Assembly: GCA_035250975.1 (NCBI GenBank)
Contig: DATFEP010000061.1
Location: 1 to 64,000 of the forward strand
DNA length: 64,000 nucleotides
Origin: Nitrososphaeraceae archaeon
GTDB lineage: Archaea; Thermoproteota; Nitrososphaeria; Nitrososphaerales; Nitrososphaeraceae
Reading direction: 5' to 3'
Shown here in pieces: positions 919 through 51,839 of the stretch; the stretch's first letter is position 1; every line of letters begins with the position of its first letter. The position numbers and the translations under genes were made by a program. Below the pieces are notes generated by a model. The model saw nothing but the letters and a program-made list of their open reading frames with translations. It had not been told where the DNA came from and searched no databases.

Positions 919-2817
919 TTACCCATATCTGAAGAAAATTCCCTTTTCACCTTTTGGATGTTTCCATTCAGTCTCTTTTGAGCAAGTTCCGCATTCAATA
1001 CATCCTTCATGTTGAAGGACGACTTTGTTATCCTCCATACTATAACATTTTGTTGGGCACAGGATTGTCATTTTTTTCATGAATTCAATTTGCGGTTTTG
1101 TTACTAAGATATGAGGCGAACTATCTTCATAATATTTCAACTTAGAAATACGTTCGTCGATTTCAGGAATATTTAATTCATATTCAGAGGAGATGATTTT
1201 GCCAAGTTTTTCTGCTAGCAATATAGGTACATCAGTATAAGTATTTTTTGACTCCAAAAAGGATAAAAATCTATTGTAGCCAAGTCTGTTAATCAAAGTT
1301 ATTCCTAAATTTCGCAGATATTCATTGGACATGCACTCGAGAATAAAATTATTTTTAAAACCCAAATTGTGTAAAGGCGTTTGACTGATTGTATTAACAA
1401 GTGTTTTGACATAGTCCTTATCGATTTTTTTCATATCTCTTGTATAAGGACTTTCACCCAAAGAGTCGGTATAAGTTTTTCCCATATAGTCAGATTCAAA
1501 ATTATTTCTGTCAATAGATCTCGCAACAGCTTGTGCTGCCCTCGCAGCATCATCTATACCGACATTTAAACCTTCAATTCTTGGACCTATAAAAACTCCT
1601 CTCCCAGCGGCATCTCCTATAAACAAAATGTTCTTGTAATACGGTTTTGTCATCATACATCTCTTTCCATCTGGTACCAACTTTGCACCATATTCTAATT
1701 CTACGTAATTAGTAACAAATTTGGTATTATATTCATCGATCAATTTGTTTTTAGTTAAAGTCATCTTTTCTTCTATATCTTCAAGAGACTTGAATTTCCC
1801 GTCTGTTATATATTTTTGTCTATTTTTTGGTGAATAATAAATATACTTTAACTCATTCCAAGTGTGTATTAGTTTACTTATTGCAAACGATCTCTTGGTT
1901 TGTTCTTCTTTGGGTAAATCCCTAGCTATATTTTTTATTGGAACCTCATCTTTTATGAGTTCCTTTATCATTGGATTATTAAGTAAAGCGTTAATAAGAC
2001 CATAAGGTTCTACAGGATTTTTTAGCAAAGAATCAAGATGATATACCCCTCCAATTGACAGAGATTCTCTGTTAGTATAAAGAAAACCTCCTCCAATTTG
2101 GTTTAACGAAATATCTCCGCTAAAAAGATGGGCTATGCCTTCTTCTGGGCTTATATTAAACCTCTTTTCGATTATTTCTTCTGGTAATTTTATGACTACT
2201 TTTACTCCCTGATAAAGCTGTTCCGTGGAAAATTTGTCTCTTGCACCTACCATTGATGCAACTTCTGAATTAACTCCATCTGCAGCTATTATTGCATCAG
2301 TCTCAAATTCCTCAAGTTCGTCAGTTTCGACAATCATGGAAGGAGCAGAATTTGAAGAATTTGTTACCTCTTTATCTTTCCATGAAATACCGTTGACGTG
2401 GACACCTGATATTATACCGCCGCCCTGTTTTTCCGCCTCTTCGCTAGCCTCTTTTGCAAACCAGGAATTTAATTTGTTTAAAAGAACAGAATAACCAAAA
2501 TTAGATTTATAATCATGAACAGGAGTAAGATCAATAGAAAAAACCTTATTTTTTGAGGTTGCATTTAATATATATTTAGTTATGCGACGCTCAAAGGGCG
2601 TTTCTTTCAGAAAGCTTTCTCCATAGAGATCCTCCACATTATACACTTTACCATATGCAGAATTTTTAGAATACAAAATTCCACCAGATATATTTTTTGA
2701 TCCTATCTGCTTTCCTGATTCTATCAAGATAGCCTGCTTTCCCAAAGTCGAAATATGTTTAAGTGCAGATAACCCTGCAGAGCCTCCGCCAATAATTATA
2801 ACATCAAAACTATCCAT
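919..2817 (-). CDS. fixCX: FixC-like FAD oxidoreductase fused to C-terminal FixX ferredoxin
   Basis: GGGSAG FAD motif, GSKNISGG, IGDAAG; C-terminal CPTKCY...CIECGTC...WKHPKGEKGIFFRYG; downstream of ETF genes. Confidence 0.85.
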   Translation of the reverse strand: MDSFDVIIIGGGSAGLSALKHISTLGKQAILIESGKQIGSKNISGGILYSKNSAYGKVYNVEDLYGESFLKETPFERRITKYILNATSKNKVFSIDLTPVHDYKSNFGYSVLLNKLNSWFAKEASEEAEKQGGGIISGVHVNGISWKDKEVTNSSNSAPSMIVETDELEEFETDAIIAADGVNSEVASMVGARDKFSTEQLYQGVKVVIKLPEEIIEKRFNISPEEGIAHLFSGDISLNQIGGGFLYTNRESLSIGGVYHLDSLLKNPVEPYGLINALLNNPMIKELIKDEVPIKNIARDLPKEEQTKRSFAISKLIHTWNELKYIYYSPKNRQKYITDGKFKSLEDIEEKMTLTKNKLIDEYNTKFVTNYVELEYGAKLVPDGKRCMMTKPYYKNILFIGDAAGRGVFIGPRIEGLNVGIDDAARAAQAVARSIDRNNFESDYMGKTYTDSLGESPYTRDMKKIDKDYVKTLVNTISQTPLHNLGFKNNFILECMSNEYLRNLGITLINRLGYNRFLSFLESKNTYTDVPILLAEKLGKIISSEYELNIPEIDERISKLKYYEDSSPHILVTKPQIEFMKKMTILCPTKCYSMEDNKVVLQHEGCIECGTCSKETEWKHPKGEKGIFFRYG

Positions 2818-2859
2818 CTATATAAACCTACCAAAAAATGGTAACAAATGCATCCGTTG

Positions 2860-4158
2860 TCATTTTTTTGAAGCCTGAACTTCTAGTGGAGAAACTATTC
2901 TTTTGATTTCATCGATAAGAACTGGAATAACGTCTTCCATTTTACCTCTGATTAACACATCGCATTCATTTATAATAGGAGCGTTTTCATCAGGATTTAT
3001 TGCTATAACAAATTCTGATTCTTTCATTCCTTCAAGATGTTGTATTGCACCACTTATTCCAATTGATATGTAAATTTTAGGTGTTATTTTCCTTCCACTT
3101 GTGCCTATAACCCTACTAGGGATAATATATGTTGAGTTTATTCTTTCATCGAGGGGAAAAATTTTCTTAGATATTGGTAAGGATATACCGATTTCTGCTT
3201 TGAGGAGTTTAGCTAACGATTCAATTAATTTTATATTTTCTTCTGGATTCTCCTTTATTCCTCTTCCGAAACTAATTACTATTTTATGAGAATCAAAATC
3301 AATTTTGTCTTTGATTATCGTTCTGTTCAAAATCTTTATCCTAAGATCTTGTTCGTCAAATTTAGGAGTATATTCAACAATTATTCCTCTTCTATTCGCT
3401 TCGCGCTTGATTGGAATAAAAGCCCCTGGAATTATACTACAAGCTTGTGGGTGATAATCTTTTTTAATTTCTGAACTTTTATTATCAAGACACAAAATAG
3501 TAGTCCATAAAAAACCCGAGAAATCTGGTCTATACATTTCTAAAATCTTCTCATATCTAACTGTTTGACCGTTTGTTTTGTATTGGTGTTTAATATCCAG
3601 ATCATCAATAGAGAGCTTGTTTACATCTGAGGCTAGACCCGAGTCAAGTTCAGCGAGGACTGTTGCAGATAAGTGTCTACCAATACTATCTGCAGCGAAA
3701 AACATGTATCGTGGTTTTTCAAATTCAGAAGCATATTCTGGTGAGATAACTGCAATCATTTTCTTATCAACCACCATCTGTGAAATAACTTTTGTACAAG
3801 TCTGGTTCAATAGATATTTCAAGTTAGTATTATCTGCATATATAACCGCATCAGCACCATGATAAATAAATTCATTGCACATTTCTTTTACATTTTCTCC
3901 CAGCACCAAGGCTATGACTTTTTCATTAGAATTGTATCTTGTGTTAAAACTATCCATCAAACGTCTAGCTTCTCCTAACATTTCATAATTCACAGGAATC
4001 GTCACTCCATCAACTATTTCTATAACAACATACAAGTTACGGTACTTGTTTGTATTAATATAATGACTTGACTTTTGGGTGGAACCGATATTATCCAAAC
4101 CATGGGTGTTCTTTAAGCCATTATCAACAGTCATATCTATCAACCGTTTAAGAGACAT
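2860..4158 (-). CDS. fixB: Electron transfer flavoprotein alpha subunit (FixB)
   Basis: PKIYISIGISGAIQHLEGMKESEFVIAINPDENAPI signature. Confidence 0.92.
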   Translation of the reverse strand: MSLKRLIDMTVDNGLKNTHGLDNIGSTQKSSHYINTNKYRNLYVVIEIVDGVTIPVNYEMLGEARRLMDSFNTRYNSNEKVIALVLGENVKEMCNEFIYHGADAVIYADNTNLKYLLNQTCTKVISQMVVDKKMIAVISPEYASEFEKPRYMFFAADSIGRHLSATVLAELDSGLASDVNKLSIDDLDIKHQYKTNGQTVRYEKILEMYRPDFSGFLWTTILCLDNKSSEIKKDYHPQACSIIPGAFIPIKREANRRGIIVEYTPKFDEQDLRIKILNRTIIKDKIDFDSHKIVISFGRGIKENPEENIKLIESLAKLLKAEIGISLPISKKIFPLDERINSTYIIPSRVIGTSGRKITPKIYISIGISGAIQHLEGMKESEFVIAINPDENAPIINECDVLIRGKMEDVIPVLIDEIKRIVSPLEVQASKK

Positions 4159-5041
4159 AATGATTTCCGGTCATTAATAATATTTTCTTCGCGACATTTT
4201 TAATTTGTTCCTGATTATCTCCATCAATAATATCTGCTTTTCTATTCGATTGACCCTTAGGAATCCTCTCAACTTTATATACAATAGTTGGAGAACCAGA
4301 TAAACCGACTGTTTTTGGATCCAATCCTAAATCATCGTGATTAAAGATTTTAAGATAAGACTTATAATTGTCCCCCCTAGCTTTAGCTTCCTTTTGATAC
4401 CTTGTAGAAATCAATCTTGATGATAAAGTATTAAAGGATGGTTTGTAAGAGGGATCGACGGAAATAAACACGGGAAGAGGTGCTTCAATTTCTTCAACAA
4501 TATTATACATTCCATACAAAGATATAAGACGTTGAAGAATTATTAGTCTTTCCTTTAGATTTATACTATAATTTATTACATTTCCAAAAAACGGATAATT
4601 AAGCTTCCACGCTGTTTGAGGTCCAGTTTGACCAGTTTCACCATCTGAGGCGCGATGACCTGAAAAAATTATGTCAATTCCGCGATTATTATCATCATTC
4701 ATACCCATTTTTTTTATTCCTGCCCTTAATACCTCGGCCGTAGCTAAAGTATCTGCACTAGCGAATATTCTATCAGTATAAAGATGAAGCGAGTCCGCAT
4801 CACATAACATTTGTGCTTCTTTTAGCGCTATGTCCGACATTGGGGGTCCCATGGTAGCAACTGAGATGTGTGCCCCATAATTAACCTTGGCATAAAAGGC
4901 TGCTAACGATGCTATTACACTATGAGCACCTAATTTGCTCTTGGTCTCAGCTCGATTAAGAGTACCGTCCGGATTATAGCTAATACTACCTTCAGAAAAA
5001 TCTGGTTCAAGTTTTATAATTACCGCAATATTGAGAGTCAA
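4148..5041 (-). CDS. fixA: Electron transfer flavoprotein beta subunit (FixA)
   Basis: TMGPP, ADTLATA, SGHRASDGETGQTGP, GLSGSPT motifs. Confidence 0.92.
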   Translation of the reverse strand: MTLNIAVIIKLEPDFSEGSISYNPDGTLNRAETKSKLGAHSVIASLAAFYAKVNYGAHISVATMGPPMSDIALKEAQMLCDADSLHLYTDRIFASADTLATAEVLRAGIKKMGMNDDNNRGIDIIFSGHRASDGETGQTGPQTAWKLNYPFFGNVINYSINLKERLIILQRLISLYGMYNIVEEIEAPLPVFISVDPSYKPSFNTLSSRLISTRYQKEAKARGDNYKSYLKIFNHDDLGLDPKTVGLSGSPTIVYKVERIPKGQSNRKADIIDGDNQEQIKNVAKKILLMTGNHYVS

Positions 5042-8390: not shown

Positions 8391-9959
8391 TCAATTAATC
8401 ATGAAAATCTTCAGAATTTTTTTTCCATCTTCAAAATTGTTCAATTGTCCCTTTATGTCTTCAGTCTTTAATACATATTCTTTTCTTGGTTGATCATCCA
8501 TTTCATACCTTAATATCAATTCGCCAACTACAGGACTTTTTTCTTTTATTTTTTCTATCTGGGGTATTAGGTACTCTGCGATTATTTCTAGAAACCGTGA
8601 TATCAAAGTTTTATCATAATAAATCCTTTCATTGTTTCCATCTTTATCTAAATAATGATCGATTGCTTTTTTACCATATAATTCAATATATTCTAGTTTA
8701 AACCCATTTTGGAGGTTCAGAGGATCTATTGTTTTTTCGATATTTTTTATAATATATTTACACAGGTTAAAAATCTGTTTAAAATCCACAGTCTCAAAAA
8801 AATCTATTATCATAGGTATAATGTTCTTTTTTTCGTTGTTTACAATATAATCAATAGTTAATAGATCGCTTTTCTTAATCCATGTTTTTAATTCTTCGTT
8901 ATCAAATGTATCATTAAAACATTTTTCAATTTCGTTACTCATTAAATTAATAGTAATTTCAATGATTTTATCAGTTTTGGAATTTGAATTTTCATTTGCT
9001 ATTCGTAAAATAATATTTTTATTCTTTTCTAGTTTAATATGTGACAAGAAATAATTATCCAGAAATATCTTTTCTGGTTCTTTATTTGAATTTTCTTTAT
9101 CATCTTCAATAGTAGAAACCAATTTGAAAGATCTTTTTAGTTTTTTAGATATTGAGACTTTATATCCTATCGGGAAAACCAAGTTATGTGTATTGAAATC
9201 TAACAGTTTTTGTTTCTGATAAAAAAAATTACTCGGTGATTCATCCATCGAGAAAGAATATGTTAAAACCTTAGAACCATCTTCATGCCCGTCTCTGTTA
9301 TCAATAATAATTGAATTTGTGTTTGTTATTTTATAGTAAATCTTTCCATCATCATTTATTAAATTCATTTCAAAACTGTTTTTTAAGTTCACCAAAAATG
9401 AATAAGGAAAGGTTACCAATCCTTTTGCTAACCAAGTTTGAATTAATTTAATTGAGTTTCTATAATAGTCATTTGTTTTTATTTTGATATTTTCTTGATA
9501 GTTCTTTAGATTTCTGGAATATTCCTTTTCCATTACTTGAAATGAATTCATCAGATAATCTTTTGTGTCGAAAAAAATTTTACCTTCATTAGATTTCTCA
9601 TTTAATGTTTGTAAGACTTTCAAATGATGCGTGGAATAGAAATTATAAATAGATGATTCCATGGCCTTAGTAAAATCTGTAAATCTATTGTGTAAATCCT
9701 TCTGAAAGTTATATGTTTCTTCAATATGCTGATCTAATTTTATAATTTTATCATGAATAACAAATATGTTATTAGAGATGGATATATAATCATTTAAAAT
9801 GTTAATAAAATTTCTGTTTTCTTCAAATTCAGAATAATCACCATACAAATATCTACCCGTTGAGGATTCGGTCAAATCTGCATTAATGTTATTAATATTA
9901 GTTTCTAGAATATTAGTATTTCCTTCTTTTTCAGAAAGGTTTTCTTGATCAATATTCAT
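8391..9959 (-). CDS. hypothetical protein, 522 aa, helical/coiled-coil N-terminal third
   Basis: Long uninterrupted ORF; no catalytic motif recognised. Confidence 0.8.
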   Translation of the reverse strand: MNIDQENLSEKEGNTNILETNINNINADLTESSTGRYLYGDYSEFEENRNFINILNDYISISNNIFVIHDKIIKLDQHIEETYNFQKDLHNRFTDFTKAMESSIYNFYSTHHLKVLQTLNEKSNEGKIFFDTKDYLMNSFQVMEKEYSRNLKNYQENIKIKTNDYYRNSIKLIQTWLAKGLVTFPYSFLVNLKNSFEMNLINDDGKIYYKITNTNSIIIDNRDGHEDGSKVLTYSFSMDESPSNFFYQKQKLLDFNTHNLVFPIGYKVSISKKLKRSFKLVSTIEDDKENSNKEPEKIFLDNYFLSHIKLEKNKNIILRIANENSNSKTDKIIEITINLMSNEIEKCFNDTFDNEELKTWIKKSDLLTIDYIVNNEKKNIIPMIIDFFETVDFKQIFNLCKYIIKNIEKTIDPLNLQNGFKLEYIELYGKKAIDHYLDKDGNNERIYYDKTLISRFLEIIAEYLIPQIEKIKEKSPVVGELILRYEMDDQPRKEYVLKTEDIKGQLNNFEDGKKILKIFMIN

Positions 9960-10174
9960 GTTGTGTATTAGTTATATGAGGTTTAAATTGCTTATTAGTA
10001 AATTTATTTCAACAAAGAATTAATGCAAATTAATACTTTTATATTAATTAATTTCTTTTTTAATAGGTGTCATTAGGTTTACCCTTTTTTGCAAATCGAT
10101 TTATTGAATTTTATGAGTATTAGATTGTGTTCCTACAATAAATTCAAATTGAGATATATTGATTTTTAATCCAA

Positions 10175-44458: not shown

Positions 44459-47158
44459 TTATCCAGATACACAACTGCTAAATCCGCATTCTATGCACAC
44501 ATTACATCCCTCAGTGATAACGAGTTTTGATTTACAAGATGGACACAGTTCACTTTCGTCTATTTCCATTACTGTCTTTTGAATTAATTCCATATTCTTG
44601 TTAAAATTTGAAGTTATCAAAACTTCTTGTTCTTCTTTTTTCACGTTATCAAATATTTTACTTAGATATTGAACTATATATGGCTCTTTTATATGGGTAT
44701 GAATATAATTAGTAACATAATCACTTGGTTTTACAATGAAAGATTTTTCGAATGTATTTGTTCCTGGAATATGTAAAACCTGTTCATTTCTTGAGCCATC
44801 TCTATATACAGTAACACCCTTTAATCCCAATTCATGAGAAAGTAGATATGAAGATTTTACATCTTCCACTGTGACGTCTCCAGGCATATTTATTGTCTTT
44901 GCAATAGCATTACTTATCCATTTTTGCCATATTGACTGCGCCATGATATGATCTGTCCAATGAATATCTATTGCTGTTGTAAATATGGATTGTATCCATT
45001 TAGGAATTTCATCAAGACCTCTAACAGATCCATAATTATTTGCTATTTTTGTTAATATTTCATCATTATAAAGACCATTTTCTTTTAATATATTTTCAAA
45101 TATTTTATTAGTATAGAAAAATCTTCCAACAGTAACACGTTTTTCAAAAACCAGTGCAAAAACAGGCTCAACACCGTTAGAACAGTCTGCTATCATGGAT
45201 AATGTACCGGTTGGAGCGATTGTAGTAGTCCAAGAATTACGTATTCCAAATTTTCGGATTTTCTCGGTTAAAGATTCCCAATCATAAGCGTGCTGTTCTT
45301 TTGGTATTTCATAACATCCAGATATAGGTATTTTTCCATTCACATAATCAGTTTCTTTGAACAATGGAAAAGGTCCTCTAGATTTAGCAACAGCAACACT
45401 TTCTTCCATGCTATAATAGGTTAATGTTTCAGCTAGTTTATTCATAAATTCATAACCTTCTGTCGATGTGTAGGGAATGCGTAACAAAAACAATAGGTCT
45501 GCTATTCCCATTATTCCCAATCCTATCCTTCTCGTAAGTTTAGTATTGTAATCGATTTCTTCTATTGGATATTTGTTCACATCTATAACATTATCAAGAA
45601 ATCGCGATGACAAACGTATCGCCTGCTCATATCTATGCCAATCAAATTCATACATACCATCTGCCTTTCTTTTAACAAAATTTGCGAGATTTATAGATCC
45701 TAAATTACAGGATTCGTAAGGATATAATGATTGTTCGCCACACGGATTGGTAGCCCTCAATGGACCATTTTTAGCTTTGAGGCATGGATTGTATTTATTA
45801 ATATTGTCAAAAAATATCACACCGGGTTCGGCACTTTTCCATGCACTTAAAGATATAAGATCTATCAATTGATGCGAATCTATCTGTTTTACGGGTTCGT
45901 GGGTTCTTGGATTTTTGAGTGTAAATTTATTGCTGTTTTTATTTATCAAAGATGTCCAGAAATCATCCCACAGTCCTACACTTACATTAAAGTTTTCAAA
46001 TACACCTGATTTCGTCTTTGCAGTAATGAATTTTTCAATATCAGGATGCCAAGCTTCCAATATCCCCATGTTTGCACCCCGTCTTTTACCTCCCTGCTTT
46101 ACAACATCAGTAATGGTATCAATGATTCTCATAAAGGATGCAGGTCCTGATGCAACTCCAGATGTAGATGCAACTATGTCACCTTCAGGTCTGAGATCCG
46201 AATAATTTATTCCCACCCCACCTCCAGATTTAAAAATCATGGCCGCATCAGAAGATGTTTTCATGATCAGACCCATATCATCAGGCATATCTAGGACAAA
46301 GCATGCTGAAAGTTGACCTAATCTTGCTCCAGCATTCATTAATGTAGGTGTGTTGGGAAGAAAATCTTTTGAGACCATTAATTCATAATATTCTTTGATT
46401 TTGTCTTCAAAACATGTAAATTTCCCTTGTACAATTAATTTTAATATTTCCTTAAATGATAATTTCATTTGTCCTCTGGAGCATAATTGAACAAATAATC
46501 GTATCAGAGATTCAAAGTGATATTTATTAAGATAATATTCACCTATTTTCAATTTCAGATCGAACTCGTTTATTTTATCATAGTAATTGGTTGCTTCTTC
46601 AATATCCTGATTGTATCCTCCAGCCAAATTGAAAATAAGAGGGTCATGTAATATATCAGCAATAGACACAAGAATCGCAACTCTTTCGAACATCTCCTTG
46701 GGTCCTTCAATAATCTCATTATTATCATCACGCAAGAGATAACGGGATGATAAAACGCGTAAAGAATTGATATCAAAAGACTTGTCAACTTCATCCAAAT
46801 CTTTTTTATTGAGAATTTTCATTTTATCTTCTCTTAGTTTTCTTCTTTCATGTCTATAGAGAATATAAGACTTCGCAGTATCTGCAAGACCATCTTCTAT
46901 TAAAATTGATTCAACTATATCCTGAACATCTTCAACACTTGGAATTAAGCCCTTTTCAAATGAATTCCTAGTGATCTTTTCTAGTACCTTATGACTCAAT
47001 GTTTCAGCTAGTTTAAAATCTGGTTTACCAGTTGCAACCAATGCCTTGTAAATGGCATGTGATATTTTTGCTTCATCAAAATTAACAACTCTACCATCTC
47101 GTTTTTTTATTTGAAAAATAGAATTATTTTTTGATTTGTTTACTTCAGATACTCCCAT
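44459..47158 (-). CDS. nrdJ: Class II (AdoCbl) ribonucleotide reductase with N-terminal ATP-cone; start probably ATG 47158
   Basis: IKKRDG ATP-cone, PNTPTLMNAG, LSACF, TNPCGEQ, IAPTGT, YRDGSR, C-terminal Cys-rich tail. Confidence 0.96.
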   Translation of the reverse strand: MGVSEVNKSKNNSIFQIKKRDGRVVNFDEAKISHAIYKALVATGKPDFKLAETLSHKVLEKITRNSFEKGLIPSVEDVQDIVESILIEDGLADTAKSYILYRHERRKLREDKMKILNKKDLDEVDKSFDINSLRVLSSRYLLRDDNNEIIEGPKEMFERVAILVSIADILHDPLIFNLAGGYNQDIEEATNYYDKINEFDLKLKIGEYYLNKYHFESLIRLFVQLCSRGQMKLSFKEILKLIVQGKFTCFEDKIKEYYELMVSKDFLPNTPTLMNAGARLGQLSACFVLDMPDDMGLIMKTSSDAAMIFKSGGGVGINYSDLRPEGDIVASTSGVASGPASFMRIIDTITDVVKQGGKRRGANMGILEAWHPDIEKFITAKTKSGVFENFNVSVGLWDDFWTSLINKNSNKFTLKNPRTHEPVKQIDSHQLIDLISLSAWKSAEPGVIFFDNINKYNPCLKAKNGPLRATNPCGEQSLYPYESCNLGSINLANFVKRKADGMYEFDWHRYEQAIRLSSRFLDNVIDVNKYPIEEIDYNTKLTRRIGLGIMGIADLLFLLRIPYTSTEGYEFMNKLAETLTYYSMEESVAVAKSRGPFPLFKETDYVNGKIPISGCYEIPKEQHAYDWESLTEKIRKFGIRNSWTTTIAPTGTLSMIADCSNGVEPVFALVFEKRVTVGRFFYTNKIFENILKENGLYNDEILTKIANNYGSVRGLDEIPKWIQSIFTTAIDIHWTDHIMAQSIWQKWISNAIAKTINMPGDVTVEDVKSSYLLSHELGLKGVTVYRDGSRNEQVLHIPGTNTFEKSFIVKPSDYVTNYIHTHIKEPYIVQYLSKIFDNVKKEEQEVLITSNFNKNMELIQKTVMEIDESELCPSCKSKLVITEGCNVCIECGFSSCVSG

Positions 47159-47229
47159 ACAGCTCGCCTTCCAATTTTTTAACAATCATCATTATTTATA
47201 AGAATTGTGAATTGAAAATACCAATAAAA

Positions 47230-47309
47230 ATATTATATCAGGGGGTTAGATACAATCTTTAAACCATAGATTTTGGGTTATTTATCGATGTAAACCATAC
47301 ATGTCAATA
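47230..47309. promoter_or_regulatory. Phased candidate operator repeats upstream of nrdJ
   Basis: TAAACCATAGAT (47260) / TAAACCATACAT (47291) 31 bp apart; GGGTTA at 47243 and 47275, 32 bp apart. Confidence 0.45.
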
Positions 47310-47333
47310 GCTAGATTCTATAGTCATTTGTTA

Positions 47334-49475
47334 TTATATAGATATTAATGAAATCTTATGGGAACCACAGTATTCACAAATTCTATTATTAGCACGTTGG
47401 GATCGTTTTCCACAAATATTGCATAGGGTCAACCCATAGGTCATCCGAACAAAAGGGAGATCGAGTGATGATTCAATTAAAGTTCTAACATCTTTATCGG
47501 TAGAAATATTTTCAATATCGATATCAATAGAAAGATTTCCTTTCAGAATATTTTCTACAGCACAGTAATGATCACATATTGATTTCAAAGAAAGATTATT
47601 TGATAGCACATCTGTGCCCTTAATTTGAAAACCTTGTGAATAAAGCTCGTCTTTATCGTTAGATGAATTGTCAGAAATTGCGGTAGATTTACCGTATTTC
47701 TCGTTGTCTAGACTCTTGAATCGATTTGAACTTTCATCTTTTAATATGGCTATTCCTAGACTTGAATTTGATAATTCTTTAGTTTGTTCACTTATTATAT
47801 CTACAGCCGTCTGTATCACTTTACAAACAATATTTTCACCGTCGTTTCCAAACTTGTAACCTAAAATATTATAAATTGATTCATTAATTCCAACTAAATT
47901 TATCATAGCATCTATCTTGCCAAGTTGTAGATTAGAAGTAATTTTTGCTAGTAGTGGTGTTGTTCCCTTTTGTATATGCTCGGATATATTACTGACACGC
48001 TGGTAGATGACAGATATTAGCGGTTTAAGCAATAACGCAAGTCTTGCTCTAAAATATGTCTCATCTCTATTTGATTGATATGCTATTCGTGGGAGATTTA
48101 TTGACAAAGATTGAAGTGTTACTACCGTGGTTTTTACGGAAGGATGAACTGCTTTGCAAAGGCCGTACCTTCCCCGTATCTTTTGTTGAGAAAATGACAT
48201 AATTCCACCAAGTCTAGAAATCTTTGCAATTTTATCAGTATATTTGTAAATGCTGTTTCGGTCTTCGCAGACGAGAGACAAACCAATATTGGGAATAGGA
48301 GTATTTACTATGTACCTGTAGTATCCATCAATTACAATATCTATCAGGGAAGAATTAGAGCCATCTAGATTGATAGGCAACGTGATGTAGGGGGAAAATG
48401 ACGAAACAGATGATATTGAAGATGAAAGAAAAAGGATTTTAGAAACTTTATTAACAAGGTTTTCGTCGCTCTGAGCATATTTCGCAAGAAACTCAATGAA
48501 TCCCTCTAAAACTACTTCACGAGAAACCTCTCTAGTTAAAAGGGAGAGTAACAAAGGAATAATTGAATCATAATCATGTGCGTTACATAAGGAACTTATC
48601 CTTGAAATCCCTAGATACTTCCCTTTAATATCAGAAAGACTATCTACTACAGAATTTAGATTTATGAAAATTGTATCAGGAAGTAAATTCCAGAACCCGC
48701 TCTTACCAATATTAATTTCACCCATCAAATGCATATCTACAATATCTTTTGGGAGAGAATTATTAAGCAGATATTCAGTAAAAATTGAAGAGGCTGTCTT
48801 TATGAAAAGATCGGAAATTTCTACATTCGAACCCGTATCATTAATAATATTTATCAAATCTATTGGGGGTATTCCTAATCGTGCAAGTTTATTTCTATAT
48901 TCATCATATCCATGATCTACTAGGACTGAGTTGGTAGTTTCCCTTATTAGTGATGATGTTAGATAAGATGTTTGAATTTTGTAGATCTTATTCTCCACTT
49001 CCTCCGTAATCTTATTTGCAAGTTCCAAAGGCATATTGGCTTCACGTACTAAAGACTGAATAATTTTATTAGAATCAAATTCTTCTATCGAAGGTTTCGT
49101 AGTCCTAACATACAACTTCCCGCTTTCTATTATCGATCTTTCCTCTATTTGACGAGCGAGACTTAAAACTAATTTACCGAGATTAGTTATAGTATATCTT
49201 CTTTCTGCCTTATTAAGAGACACTAAAGATTGTCTAAGTAATTTTCTTAGATGATAAGCAAATTTGCCAGATTCTTTCTTTGATTTAAATCCTGCTAATG
49301 ATTTTAATTCAGAATAAGTTAATGGCCCCTTAGAATTTAAAATTCTGAGAATATCTATACGATTAGGACTCGCCATGACTGAAAAAATCATTCTTACACG
49401 TCTTGAAGCTGATTCTAAAATTCCACCACGTTTCAAACTTGTCCTATTCGTGGTTTGGTATTGTACTCGCTCCAT
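47334..49475 (-). CDS. ArsR-like HTH + ATP-cone + degenerate class III RNR (NrdD-like) fusion; start ATG 49475 or TTG 49496
   Basis: SPNRIDILRIL...FAYHLRKL wHTH; VRTTKPSIEEFDSNKI...SSLIRE ATP-cone; HLMGEINI, SINLPRIA, INLVGINE, terminal CxxC..CxxC; no RxxGY. Confidence 0.85.
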   Translation of the reverse strand: MERVQYQTTNRTSLKRGGILESASRRVRMIFSVMASPNRIDILRILNSKGPLTYSELKSLAGFKSKKESGKFAYHLRKLLRQSLVSLNKAERRYTITNLGKLVLSLARQIEERSIIESGKLYVRTTKPSIEEFDSNKIIQSLVREANMPLELANKITEEVENKIYKIQTSYLTSSLIRETTNSVLVDHGYDEYRNKLARLGIPPIDLINIINDTGSNVEISDLFIKTASSIFTEYLLNNSLPKDIVDMHLMGEINIGKSGFWNLLPDTIFINLNSVVDSLSDIKGKYLGISRISSLCNAHDYDSIIPLLLSLLTREVSREVVLEGFIEFLAKYAQSDENLVNKVSKILFLSSSISSVSSFSPYITLPINLDGSNSSLIDIVIDGYYRYIVNTPIPNIGLSLVCEDRNSIYKYTDKIAKISRLGGIMSFSQQKIRGRYGLCKAVHPSVKTTVVTLQSLSINLPRIAYQSNRDETYFRARLALLLKPLISVIYQRVSNISEHIQKGTTPLLAKITSNLQLGKIDAMINLVGINESIYNILGYKFGNDGENIVCKVIQTAVDIISEQTKELSNSSLGIAILKDESSNRFKSLDNEKYGKSTAISDNSSNDKDELYSQGFQIKGTDVLSNNLSLKSICDHYCAVENILKGNLSIDIDIENISTDKDVRTLIESSLDLPFVRMTYGLTLCNICGKRSQRANNRICEYCGSHKISLISI

Positions 49476-49582
49476 TGCACCCGTTATAATTAACAAGTAA
49501 TTAAAACTACCTTGTAAAGTTTTTTTTACAAATAATATAATGTATTGTAATTAACCAATTGAACAAATAAAATTAATAACTG

Positions 49583-50191
49583 TTATATCAAAACTGGCTG
49601 ACTTTCATGAAACTCGTTATCTTGTTCCTTGTGAATTCGTTTTTTATGTATACGCGTCGGTACTTCCGGCAGTTTGTTTTTGGTATCCTCTTCCATTACA
49701 GATTGTACTTCATTAAGAATGTCCAATGCCTCAGTGTTTACAGGAAAGTGAATAGTATCTGACTGTAGGTTTAGGCTGGTATTTATCAAAACATTATCAG
49801 TTAAAGATGACATCTCTGAGAAAAGTTGTTTTGCATGTGGAACTGTATTATCTATATCTATCTGAACTTCTTTTATTGTATTAATCATTGGATTTATTGT
49901 ATCTAAAATTCCAGCAAATTCGGAAATAGTAGAAAATCTAATAACTATTACCTCCAGTGCTATTGACAATTTTTGTGTTATATTTTTTATTTTCCTAATA
50001 TTTACCAATTCGCGAGCAATGACTTTAGCGTTACTAGTATCACCGTTCTTTATGTTAATTGCAACCTTACCTGATAATTCCCTATCAAGTGAGACGAATC
50101 TTTTATCAAGTATCCTCATTTTGGCAAGTTGTGTATTAACAACCACGGTTGCATGAGCAAGTCTGTTTTGAAGCTGGGGATACTTTTCCAC
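49583..50191 (-). CDS. ESCRT-III / Snf7 family protein (CdvB paralog)
   Basis: AKVIARELVNIRK, ALEVIVIRFSTI, EALDILNE...KLPEVP. Confidence 0.8.
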   Translation of the reverse strand: MEKYPQLQNRLAHATVVVNTQLAKMRILDKRFVSLDRELSGKVAINIKNGDTSNAKVIARELVNIRKIKNITQKLSIALEVIVIRFSTISEFAGILDTINPMINTIKEVQIDIDNTVPHAKQLFSEMSSLTDNVLINTSLNLQSDTIHFPVNTEALDILNEVQSVMEEDTKNKLPEVPTRIHKKRIHKEQDNEFHESQPVLI

Positions 50192-50288: not shown

Positions 50289-50675
50289 TCAGATTTTTTT
50301 AATTACTAGACCATGTTTTTCATCGAATCCAGCTACTTTTACTTTTGAACCGATAGGCAAATCTGATGGTGACTTGATCCCAGGAAGAAAACCAGACACT
50401 CTAATAGCGGCACCTTCAATGGAAAATACTACCCAAGCATAACTTTCTACGTCATCAAATCCTTCGGGAGGGACTGCATGGATCGTGAAAGTAATTACTT
50501 TACCAATACCATCCAATTCTATTACATCAAACTTATTATTTTGACATTTAGTACAATAGACCATCGTTTCTAAAATAAGTGTATGACAATTTCTACAACT
50601 TCTAACTAAAATCTTGGAATTCTTTGCAGAAGAAATGAATTTCTCTCTTAATCCAGAATTCAGTACATCTTTCAC
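50289..50675 (-). CDS. DUF35 Zn-ribbon/OB-fold thiolase partner
   Basis: CRNC...CTKC, GKVITFTIHAVPPEGF; follows thiolase. Confidence 0.9.
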   Translation of the reverse strand: MKDVLNSGLREKFISSAKNSKILVRSCRNCHTLILETMVYCTKCQNNKFDVIELDGIGKVITFTIHAVPPEGFDDVESYAWVVFSIEGAAIRVSGFLPGIKSPSDLPIGSKVKVAGFDEKHGLVIKKI

Positions 50676-50684
50676 CTTACTCGG

Positions 50685-51839
50685 TTACACCTTTTTAAAA
50701 ATATGAACTGCTGCACTAGCACCTGTAGCTCCAAAATTATGAGTAAGAGCTATTTTGGCATTCTTAATCGTTCTCTCTCCTGCTTTGCCACTAAATTGTT
50801 CATATACTTCAACTATTTGTCCTATACCAGTTGCTCCAATTGGATGACCTTTGGACTTCAAACCCCCAGATGGGTTAATTGGAATTCTTCCTTGTCTTGA
50901 TGTAGCACCATCCCTGATTTCTTTTACAGCTTTTCCCTTTTGAAAAAATCCTAAATCTTCAACATCAATTATTTCCGCTATAGTGAAACAGTCATGAACT
51001 TCAGCAAAATCCACATCTGTGGGCGAAATATTTGCCATCTTGTATGCCTGATTTGCGGCAGCAACAGTGCTTGGAATAGTGGCTATTTCTGCTCGTCCTT
51101 GGACCGCTGCGGGTGAACCTCCGCGACCAGATCCAATCACTTCTATATATTCTCTGCCACTTCTTTTTGCGAAATCTTCACTACAAACAATAACTGCTGA
51201 TGCACCATCAGAAAAAGGACAGCAATCATAAAGTTTCAAGGGAGAAGCTACAACTGGAGAATTTAATACATCATCCACCGTTATTCGCTTACGCATATGT
51301 GCCTTTGGATTCAATAGTCCATTTTCATGATTTTTAACCGCTACAAGTGCAAGATCCTCTTCATTTGCTTTAAATTTAGTCATATAGGCTCTAGCAATGG
51401 ACGCGAAAAGTCCAGGAAAGGAAGCACCATTACCACCTTCATAAAAGAAATCAGAACAGTAAGAAAAGAGAGTGGTACTCTCTGTCGTTCCGGTGTGAGT
51501 AACTTTTTCCACTCCCAGAGCTAAAACACAATCATAAAAGCCAGCGGCAACATTGGCATAAGCTTCTCTAAACATCACAGAACCAGAACCACATGCAGAT
51601 TCTATAGTAAGACCAGGAACGTGAGATATACCAAGATTACTCATTATGACAGGAGCCATATGTACTTGTTTATCAACAACACCGAAAACGTTGGAGATAT
51701 ACCCAGCCTCGATATCTTTTGGAGTAATTCCTGCTGACTCAATTGCATCTACAGAGGCATTTAATGCAATTTCAATAATACTTTCATTTAATTTACCATA
51801 TTTTGTACTACCTGCTCCTAAAATGCAGACCTTGTTCAC
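50685..51839 (-). CDS. Archaeal thiolase (acetyl-CoA C-acetyltransferase)
   Basis: ESACGSG, NPKAH, EVHDCF, GHPIGATG. Confidence 0.93.
   Translation of the reverse strand: MNKVCILGAGSTKYGKLNESIIEIALNASVDAIESAGITPKDIEAGYISNVFGVVDKQVHMAPVIMSNLGISHVPGLTIESACGSGSVMFREAYANVAAGFYDCVLALGVEKVTHTGTTESTTLFSYCSDFFYEGGNGASFPGLFASIARAYMTKFKANEEDLALVAVKNHENGLLNPKAHMRKRITVDDVLNSPVVASPLKLYDCCPFSDGASAVIVCSEDFAKRSGREYIEVIGSGRGGSPAAVQGRAEIATIPSTVAAANQAYKMANISPTDVDFAEVHDCFTIAEIIDVEDLGFFQKGKAVKEIRDGATSRQGRIPINPSGGLKSKGHPIGATGIGQIVEVYEQFSGKAGERTIKNAKIALTHNFGATGASAAVHIFKKV

Follow-up and report, generated by a model that had tools for sequence, protein, structure and literature searches.

The window analysed here, a stretch of 64,000 nucleotides (nt) from a Nitrososphaeraceae archaeon (GCA_035250975.1, contig DATFEP010000061.1), encodes on its reverse strand a protein in which a winged helix-turn-helix (wHTH) and an ATP-cone-fold domain are joined to the body of NrdD, the class III ribonucleotide reductase (RNR). 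The gene combines this domain anatomy with a loss of catalytic features, is under purifying selection and keeps its place beside RNR genes of two classes. We consider it probable that the protein is a transcription factor derived from an enzyme and acting on RNR genes, and a functional analogue of NrdR, the RNR-specific repressor of bacteria (available text of PMC9110341). An earlier sequence-only reading of the window had proposed such an analogue; the dead enzyme, the fused and strongly conserved wHTH and the conserved gene order with RNR genes held up, whereas NrdR-like sensing of nucleotides cannot be taken for granted in a cone that lacks the canonical Lys-Arg pair.

According to the mechanism we propose, one copy of a duplicated class III RNR would have retained the fold together with the Zn ribbon and the cone-type domain at the N-terminus, would have lost its glycyl-radical domain and its catalytic cysteines, and would have gained an ArsR-like winged helix at the N-terminus. 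The resulting protein, probably dimeric like NrdD, would attach to DNA close to the promoter of the following RNR gene, nrdJ in the window, and binding of a nucleotide would alter transcription of that gene; DNA binding, the target gene, the ligand and the direction of the effect are all inferred.

Domain anatomy and loss of reductase features

The gene is the sole long open reading frame (ORF) at its locus (47334..49496, reverse strand) and encodes 720 amino acids (aa) when read from a TTG. Because database homologues (711–719 aa) begin at MERVQ, Met8 (49475) is probably the true start, giving 713 aa at 47334..49475 (−). The wHTH, cone and NrdD-like body that the sequence-only reading had recognised in this one ORF all score above their Pfam cut-offs, and the motifs it had picked out (SINLPRIA, INLVGINE, CNIC...CEYC and the C-terminus GSHKISLISI) are all located in the translation. 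The ArsR/SmtB-like wHTH occupies residues 26–124 (49125..49421, −), with SGKFAYHLRKL as its recognition helix, is identified by Pfam and by its modelled fold, and has a ratio of nonsynonymous to synonymous substitutions (dN/dS) of 0.000–0.04; within it, residues 37–111 (E 4e-10) match DUF7347 (40.2 bits, cut-off 27.6) and HTH_20 (32.1 bits, cut-off 27). The ATP-cone-fold domain, a fold of four helices and a β-hairpin, follows at residues 129–204 (48885..49112, −), assigned by Pfam (PF03477 at residues 129–200, 36.8 bits against a gathering cut-off of 25.8), by fold and by a cone alignment in which VRTTK replaces the canonical xKRDG. The rest is a diverged, ten-stranded NrdD barrel at residues 232–716 (47349..48803, −; Pfam NRDD 59.2 bits, cut-off 26.2), lacking the glycyl-radical domain: the NRDD match spans profile positions 14–534 of 562 and leaves unmatched the C-terminal end, where glycyl-radical-bearing relatives have RxxGY.

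Single-sequence searches of the PDB, with the whole protein or with the cone alone, gave chance-level matches only, and a family profile was therefore needed. Using the profile of an alignment of 25 diverse relatives, every significant PDB match was a class III RNR (9d3x at 1.3e-36, 8p23, 4coi/4u3e and 1h78), with NrdD chains at 1e-36 to 2e-26. An AlphaFold2 model from a 93-sequence alignment (predicted local distance difference test, pLDDT, 88.7; predicted template modelling score, pTM, 0.84) likewise found only class III RNRs as its best Foldseek matches in the PDB, at template modelling scores, TM(target), of 0.56–0.63 and 12–16% identity. A separate model of residues 22–231 (pLDDT 83.6) matched the ArsR/SmtB regulators CzrA, SmtB, CadC and Rv0081 (TM(target) 0.69–0.76, root-mean-square deviation ~2.6) as well as the ATP-cones of NrdR (7p37, 9fxk, 9a6n) and of class I and III RNRs, among them PaNrdA, LbNrdB and StNrdD, with E-values that are mostly weak since the query holds two domains. 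An NrdD-fold body, an ArsR/SmtB-like head and an ATP-cone-fold domain were all recovered in this way.

The body retains Asn467 of NLPR (48096..48098, −), the one nearly invariant residue of the active-site region to have been kept, present in 92 of the 93 members of the family alignment used for column counts, together with the four Zn-ribbon cysteines C692, C695, C707 and C710 (47367..47423, −). The cysteine conserved in all known RNRs (C79 in T4, C175 in E. coli and C125 in T. maritima; available text of PMC4493059) aligns in three independent PDB alignments to Thr275 (48672..48674, −), and Cys occurs in this column in 0/93 family members. At the finger-loop tip, G445-L446-C447 (48156..48164, −), the thiyl Cys that lies in the MGCR motif of 9d3x and 8p23 aligns to L446, one residue away from C447. 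A Cys at position 447 is not required, because it is found in only 56 of the best 120 homologues, the others having Ser (56) or Ala (8); going by the alignment, C447 might be a remnant of the thiyl Cys. The finger-loop Cys alone is not decisive, since crystals of active tmNrdD show Ile at the loop tip (available text of PMC4493059). The HxHD motif, which in PcNrdD (residues 157–160) holds the substrate triphosphate (available text of PMC11226230), reads N-I-G-K in the window protein; across the family alignment the first His is present in 58/93 members and the Asp in 14/93, and the second His falls outside the six most frequent residues in its column.

The RxxGY radical loop, whose absence had been noted from the sequence, is indeed missing. 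The stop comes 10 residues after the last CxxC of the Zn ribbon, and the tail measures 7 or 10 aa in 120/120 close homologues. A frameshift that would rescue a glycyl-radical tail was considered and rejected: neither the frames 3' of the stop nor a six-frame reading of the whole window showed an RxxGY-type motif. The activase NrdG, previously described as lacking from the neighbourhood, was not found above cut-off anywhere in the genome of the archaeon, an assembly that is 94.6% complete (best matches 29.8 bits against 126 for TIGR02491 and 48.8 against 131 for TIGR02495). The best radical-SAM candidate has generic radical-SAM domains only, according to Pfam, and adjoins a gene resembling QueC by reading of its sequence, without a family search on that gene. 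Because the glycyl-radical loop, the universal Cys and HxHD are gone and no activase was found, the evidence supports a protein that is catalytically dead as a reductase.

The window gene is also the only NRDD match in this genome, and nrdJ is the only class I/II barrel found there. No TIGR00244 (NrdR) match was obtained in the window protein or in the genome. Two further ATP-cone matches lie outside RNR genes, one at G000:C2:12677-12886 (−) in a 296-aa open frame (35.8 bits) and the other at G000:C23:61477-61629 (−) in a 221-aa frame (21.1 bits, under the cut-off).

Family, selection and gene order

A word-indexed search returned more than 4000 relatives, of which the best 120 carry the same four Pfam domains in open frames of 711–719 aa; the named members among these 120 belong to Nitrososphaeraceae/Nitrososphaerales. 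Their database labels are "helix-turn-helix domain-containing protein", "ArsR family regulator" and, as the sequence-only reading had guessed, "anaerobic ribonucleoside-triphosphate reductase", a label that could wrongly imply anaerobic synthesis of deoxyribonucleoside triphosphates (dNTPs) in aerobic nitrifiers. When 50%-identity representatives were searched exhaustively, 884 matches came up, comprising short forms of ~700 aa, the window type, and long forms of 740–800 aa, the named ones among the latter being Bathyarchaeia. The long forms are less diverged, match the full NRDD profile strongly (307 bits for the long form P0165) and keep a vestigial radical loop, in which the Gly column (n = 119) holds A in 92, S in 14, T in 7, G in 3, E in 2 and N in 1, compared with Gly in 9/9 of the real NrdDs that neighbour them. 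These neighbouring NrdDs are the nearest sequence relatives of the dead family, at ~35% identity to P0165. Some long-form genes (G294, G176, G021, G228, G366, G336 and G109) hold one or two in-frame stops (TAA, TAG or TGA), which could reflect pseudogenes, assembly errors or recoding.

Searching 401 genomes of the phylum with P0165 gave a match in all 59 genomes of the same order, and 113 of the best 150 matches begin no later than query residue 20 and hence include the HTH; the phylum-wide tally of 302/401 counts ordinary NrdDs too and is not usable as a distribution of the family. In a FastTree phylogeny of 46 sequences, rooted at the midpoint with no outgroup and with long branches flagged, the 10 real NrdDs fall on one side of a branch with 99% support. 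The short forms make up a clade with 100% support and are joined by the long-branch, 637-aa P0239, which had previously been grouped with the long forms. The tree is consistent with a single origin of the HTH-bearing family.

Selection was assessed by codon-by-codon comparison with four relatives, the nearest being L015 (synonymous divergence, dS, 0.19). Relative to L015, dN/dS is 0.000 in the HTH, 0.046 in the cone plus linker and 0.154 in the body, and overall values across the relatives lie at 0.11–0.17. Identity to another relative, L016, is 100% in the HTH, 92% in the cone and 64% in the body, in agreement with the earlier impression of a preserved HTH and cone on a diverged body. With an overall identity of 74%, the HTH is still 100% identical. 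Purifying selection continues to act on the body as well, and the gene is not decaying. The lost catalytic residues and the strongly diverged barrel are what would be expected of a pseudogene decaying since an anaerobic ancestor, yet we give this explanation next to no credence, given a frame that stays open at 711–719 aa in the best 120 homologues, the low dN/dS, the presence of the gene in 59/59 same-order genomes and the confident AlphaFold model.

It is also very improbable that the protein is still a radical enzyme, be it an unusual RNR or another glycyl- or aminoacyl-radical enzyme. Ala, Ser or Thr can bear the radical in some PFL-type enzymes (available text of PMC11528403), and these are the residues that most of the long Bathyarchaeia forms have in the Gly column. 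However, the window protein has no radical loop of any kind, the universal Cys is found in none of the 93 family members, no activase was detected in the genome, the NCBIfam NrdD equivalog scores 57.5 bits, far under its cut-off of 326, and NrdD serves only as an outgroup in the available text of PMC11528403.

Directly downstream of the regulator gene and co-oriented with it, as had been read from the sequence, lies an intact nrdJ (44459..47185, −; start probably the ATG at 47158), which encodes an adenosylcobalamin-dependent class II RNR with a canonical ATP-cone and NPCGEQ (TIGR02504 749.6 bits, cut-off 400). To follow this arrangement among ammonia oxidisers, 80 named loci of Nitrososphaeraceae and Nitrosopumilaceae were sampled, 13 of them on contigs that end within 547 nt, leaving 67 assessable. 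Synteny with nrdJ was found in 59/80 loci, or 59/67 of those assessable, with nrdJ directly downstream and co-oriented. A further 20 loci were fetched from other Thermoproteota, 7 picked because adjacency was already visible and 13 picked blind to it. In 11 of these 20 the gene directly after the HTH form is an RNR gene, encoding NrdD in nine (with RITGY, RVTGY or RVVGY), NrdJ in one and an NrdD-like protein in one. Ammonia oxidisers show a strong link to RNR genes; elsewhere the link is common without being universal, and it held across a change of RNR class. The NrdD-like neighbour (ORF 2680-4602, −, of locus L132, G004:C5) reads SRSIAFYG where NrdD has SRITGYY, with Ala at the Gly position, and its genome seems, from the sequence, to hold two NrdD relatives lacking the radical glycine.

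Cone, operator and rival readings

Several results weigh against an RNR-specific, nucleotide-sensing regulator. The cone reads VRTTK in the window protein, with R131 and K134 as its basic residues, and VRTS[KR] in the family, where T-T or T-S replaces the canonical K-R of KRDG; the window cone thus lacks the pair that contacts triphosphates in PcNrdD, where Lys7 and Arg8 are among the residues neutralising them (available text of PMC11226230). An NrdR-like reading of ATP and dATP therefore cannot be assumed. The nrdJ of the same window keeps a canonical KKRDG cone. The same variant, VRTS[KR] with LSxPLIRE, is carried by the catalytically intact Bathyarchaeia NrdDs (RITGY) beside long forms (L125 and L127–L131); it therefore came by inheritance and did not arise as an adaptation of the regulator. 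With regard to gene order, 8 of the 67 assessable ammonia-oxidiser loci are without nrdJ despite at least 1509 nt of downstream sequence. One of these exceptions, L035, has a DDE transposase (9235-10158) exactly in the place of nrdJ, followed by an ERCC4-type nuclease gene on the other strand, and an insertion is the probable cause of the broken synteny in this lineage; in another, an RNase H gene comes after the regulator. Among the 13 loci picked blind to adjacency, 12 were assessable and only 4 have an RNR gene downstream. Finally, no family-wide operator was found in the regions upstream of nrdJ, only lineage-specific dyads, even though the recognition helix hardly varies between Bathyarchaeia and ammonia oxidisers.

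The regulator–nrdJ intergenic region of the window (47159..47333, −) contains a T-rich stretch, a putative TATA-like TTATAAATAA at ~47192-47201 (−), a candidate imperfect palindrome ATGTATGGTTTACAT at 47288-47302 (−) and, 31 nt downstream of the palindrome, a second TATGGTTTA at 47260-47268 (−); their promoter and operator roles are putative. The palindrome was rejected as a conserved operator, being absent from the nearest relative, L015. The 8–10-mers common to 58 intergenic regions were A/T runs and nrdJ coding starts only. Enrichment of 5- and 6-mers over other intergenic DNA was weak (at most ~2–4 fold), except for GC-rich words such as AGCTGC (7-fold), which sit just past the regulator gene in Nitrososphaera loci. 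The 10-mers common to the regions upstream of the regulator and upstream of nrdJ occurred in 13/55 loci, compared with 9/55 mismatched controls. A dyad, TATG-N1-7-CATA, is present in 16/58 regions against 3.4 in shuffles, 12 of the 16 being related Nitrosopumilaceae, and is absent from the window. Also absent from the window is the perfect palindrome TATGAAnTTCATA, a candidate operator for Nitrosopumilaceae that is found in 12/16 of their regulator–nrdJ intergenic regions, ~115–130 nt before nrdJ (L073, L078–L080, L082–L086 and L089–L091).

Other candidate sequence patterns were observed in these regions. Nitrosopumilaceae loci L073–L092 have 11.8 GATC per kb of intergenic DNA and 4.2 per kb over whole loci, the boxes often being ~20 nt apart; up to 15 GATC lie within 300 nt upstream of the regulator in L083, and the window intergenic region has zero. 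In a Nitrososphaeraceae subgroup (L047, L054, L056, L061, L063 and L074), a dyad AAGCTA-N5-TAGCTG stands between two TATA-like runs ~30–40 nt before nrdJ, and the half-site AAGCTAA occurs in several other loci.

Directly upstream of the regulator, the gene at 49583-50191 (−) is Snf7/ESCRT-III-like at 23.5 bits, under the cut-off of 27.3, and its counterpart in L034 (6291-6917) reaches 36.9 bits. At least two Nitrososphaeraceae therefore have a cell-division-type gene next to the putative RNR regulator. This neighbour, the several Thermoproteota loci that have no RNR gene downstream, the missing Lys-Arg pair and HxHD motif, and the lack of an operator common to the nrdJ promoters would all suit a DNA-binding regulator that is not an RNR-specific nucleotide sensor and that either governs a wider replication or cell-cycle regulon or responds to another ligand or signal through its remodelled barrel. 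We regard such a regulator as unlikely, though to be taken seriously, because RNR adjacency survives the change from nrdD to nrdJ and spans two archaeal classes, a persistence that makes a functional tie to RNR hard to avoid.

This tie could also be exerted at the protein level, the wHTH serving for protein contacts and the protein either binding nucleotides as a partner of NrdJ or NrdD or modulating one of them allosterically. Descent from a dimeric enzyme, the frequency with which neighbouring genes encode interacting proteins and the failure to find an operator speak for this possibility, which we nonetheless judge improbable: the wHTH is the most conserved part of the protein, with a fold and a recognition helix typical of ArsR/SmtB, and the N-terminus stays nearly constant while the partner shifts from NrdD to NrdJ, which are unrelated in sequence.

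Extending the preferred reading of a transcription factor for RNR genes, we tentatively suggest, as a possibility in which we place limited confidence, that Bathyarchaeia and ammonia oxidisers control dNTP synthesis with a dead NrdD. Such a protein would read nucleotide pools through sites retained from the reductase, be it the cone, the specificity site at the dimer interface or an active site now empty, and signal to the fused winged helix at the RNR promoter, and it may have been kept in charge through the swap of an oxygen-sensitive nrdD for a B12-dependent nrdJ on the move to aerobic life.

Metatranscriptome contigs from four runs in four studies cover parts of both genes at 95–99% identity, with regulator pieces of up to 1143 nt, and lend weak support to expression of the regulator gene, as DNA can be present in such libraries. 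No listed RNA piece bridges 47150-47200 and intergenic cover is low, although absence, the ends of transcripts and the structure of operons are beyond what contigs can show. Elsewhere in the window, a thiolase gene and then a small OB-fold (ChsH2_C-like) gene were identified at 50289-51839 (−). The pairing of a thiolase with an OB-fold protein is ordinary in archaea, where it is seen with acetoacetyl-CoA thiolase/HMG-CoA synthase complexes.

Significance and comparison with known systems

Control of RNR, exerted in bacteria by NrdR, sets dNTP pools and thereby affects replication fidelity, and for ammonia-oxidising archaea, nitrifiers of global importance, we found no description of a counterpart to NrdR. 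With a conserved candidate present in single copy, the question of archaeal RNR control becomes directly testable; if the proposal is true, the protein would be a clear case of a radical enzyme turned sensor pseudoenzyme. In line with the claim that no characterisation as a regulator has been published, neither a dead-NrdD regulator nor DUF7347 was found described in full-text literature, whose supplements (RNRdb, phylogeny) might list the clade; the text of an RNR phylogeny preprint is silent on helix-turn-helix, DNA-binding and Thaumarchaeota.

NrdR, at ~150 aa, consists of an N-terminal Zn ribbon and an ATP-cone and is rare in archaea (available text of PMC9110341); because it was also not found in the genome studied here, its niche is open. 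Like NrdR, the window protein joins a DNA-binding module to an ATP-cone-fold domain, and its gene is tied to RNR genes. Unlike NrdR, it has an ArsR-like wHTH and no Zn-ribbon DNA-binding domain, is five times larger and includes a whole dead NrdD barrel; its cone is without the canonical Lys-Arg pair, no conserved operator resembling an NrdR box was found, and there is no whole-protein homology, as judged by TIGR00244. With NrdD, as known from the T4, T. maritima, P. copri and S. thermophilus structures, it shares the fold, the NLPR asparagine, the Zn ribbon and the N-terminal cone, but it lacks the glycyl-radical domain, the universal Cys, the conserved thiyl Cys, HxHD and an activase, and a wHTH has been added. 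It likewise differs from the aminoacyl-radical enzymes in having no loop and, as far as was found, no activase in its genome, with A, S or T confined to the long Bathyarchaeia relatives.

Residues 26–124 resemble the ArsR/SmtB regulators CzrA, SmtB and CadC in fold and in the Pfam HTH_20 match. Those regulators are metal or redox sensors of ~100 aa, whereas here the wHTH forms the head of a 713-aa protein. A parallel in kind is PurR of Bacillus subtilis, an enzyme-derived repressor made up of a wHTH and an inactive phosphoribosyltransferase-like domain. In PurR, too, a dead copy of a pathway enzyme combined with a winged helix senses a metabolite of the pathway and controls its genes, although the enzyme family, the pathway and the domain of life are different. 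Enzyme-derived, pathway-linked regulators are thus already known as a kind, and the RNR-linked one presented here is undescribed in the literature we found.

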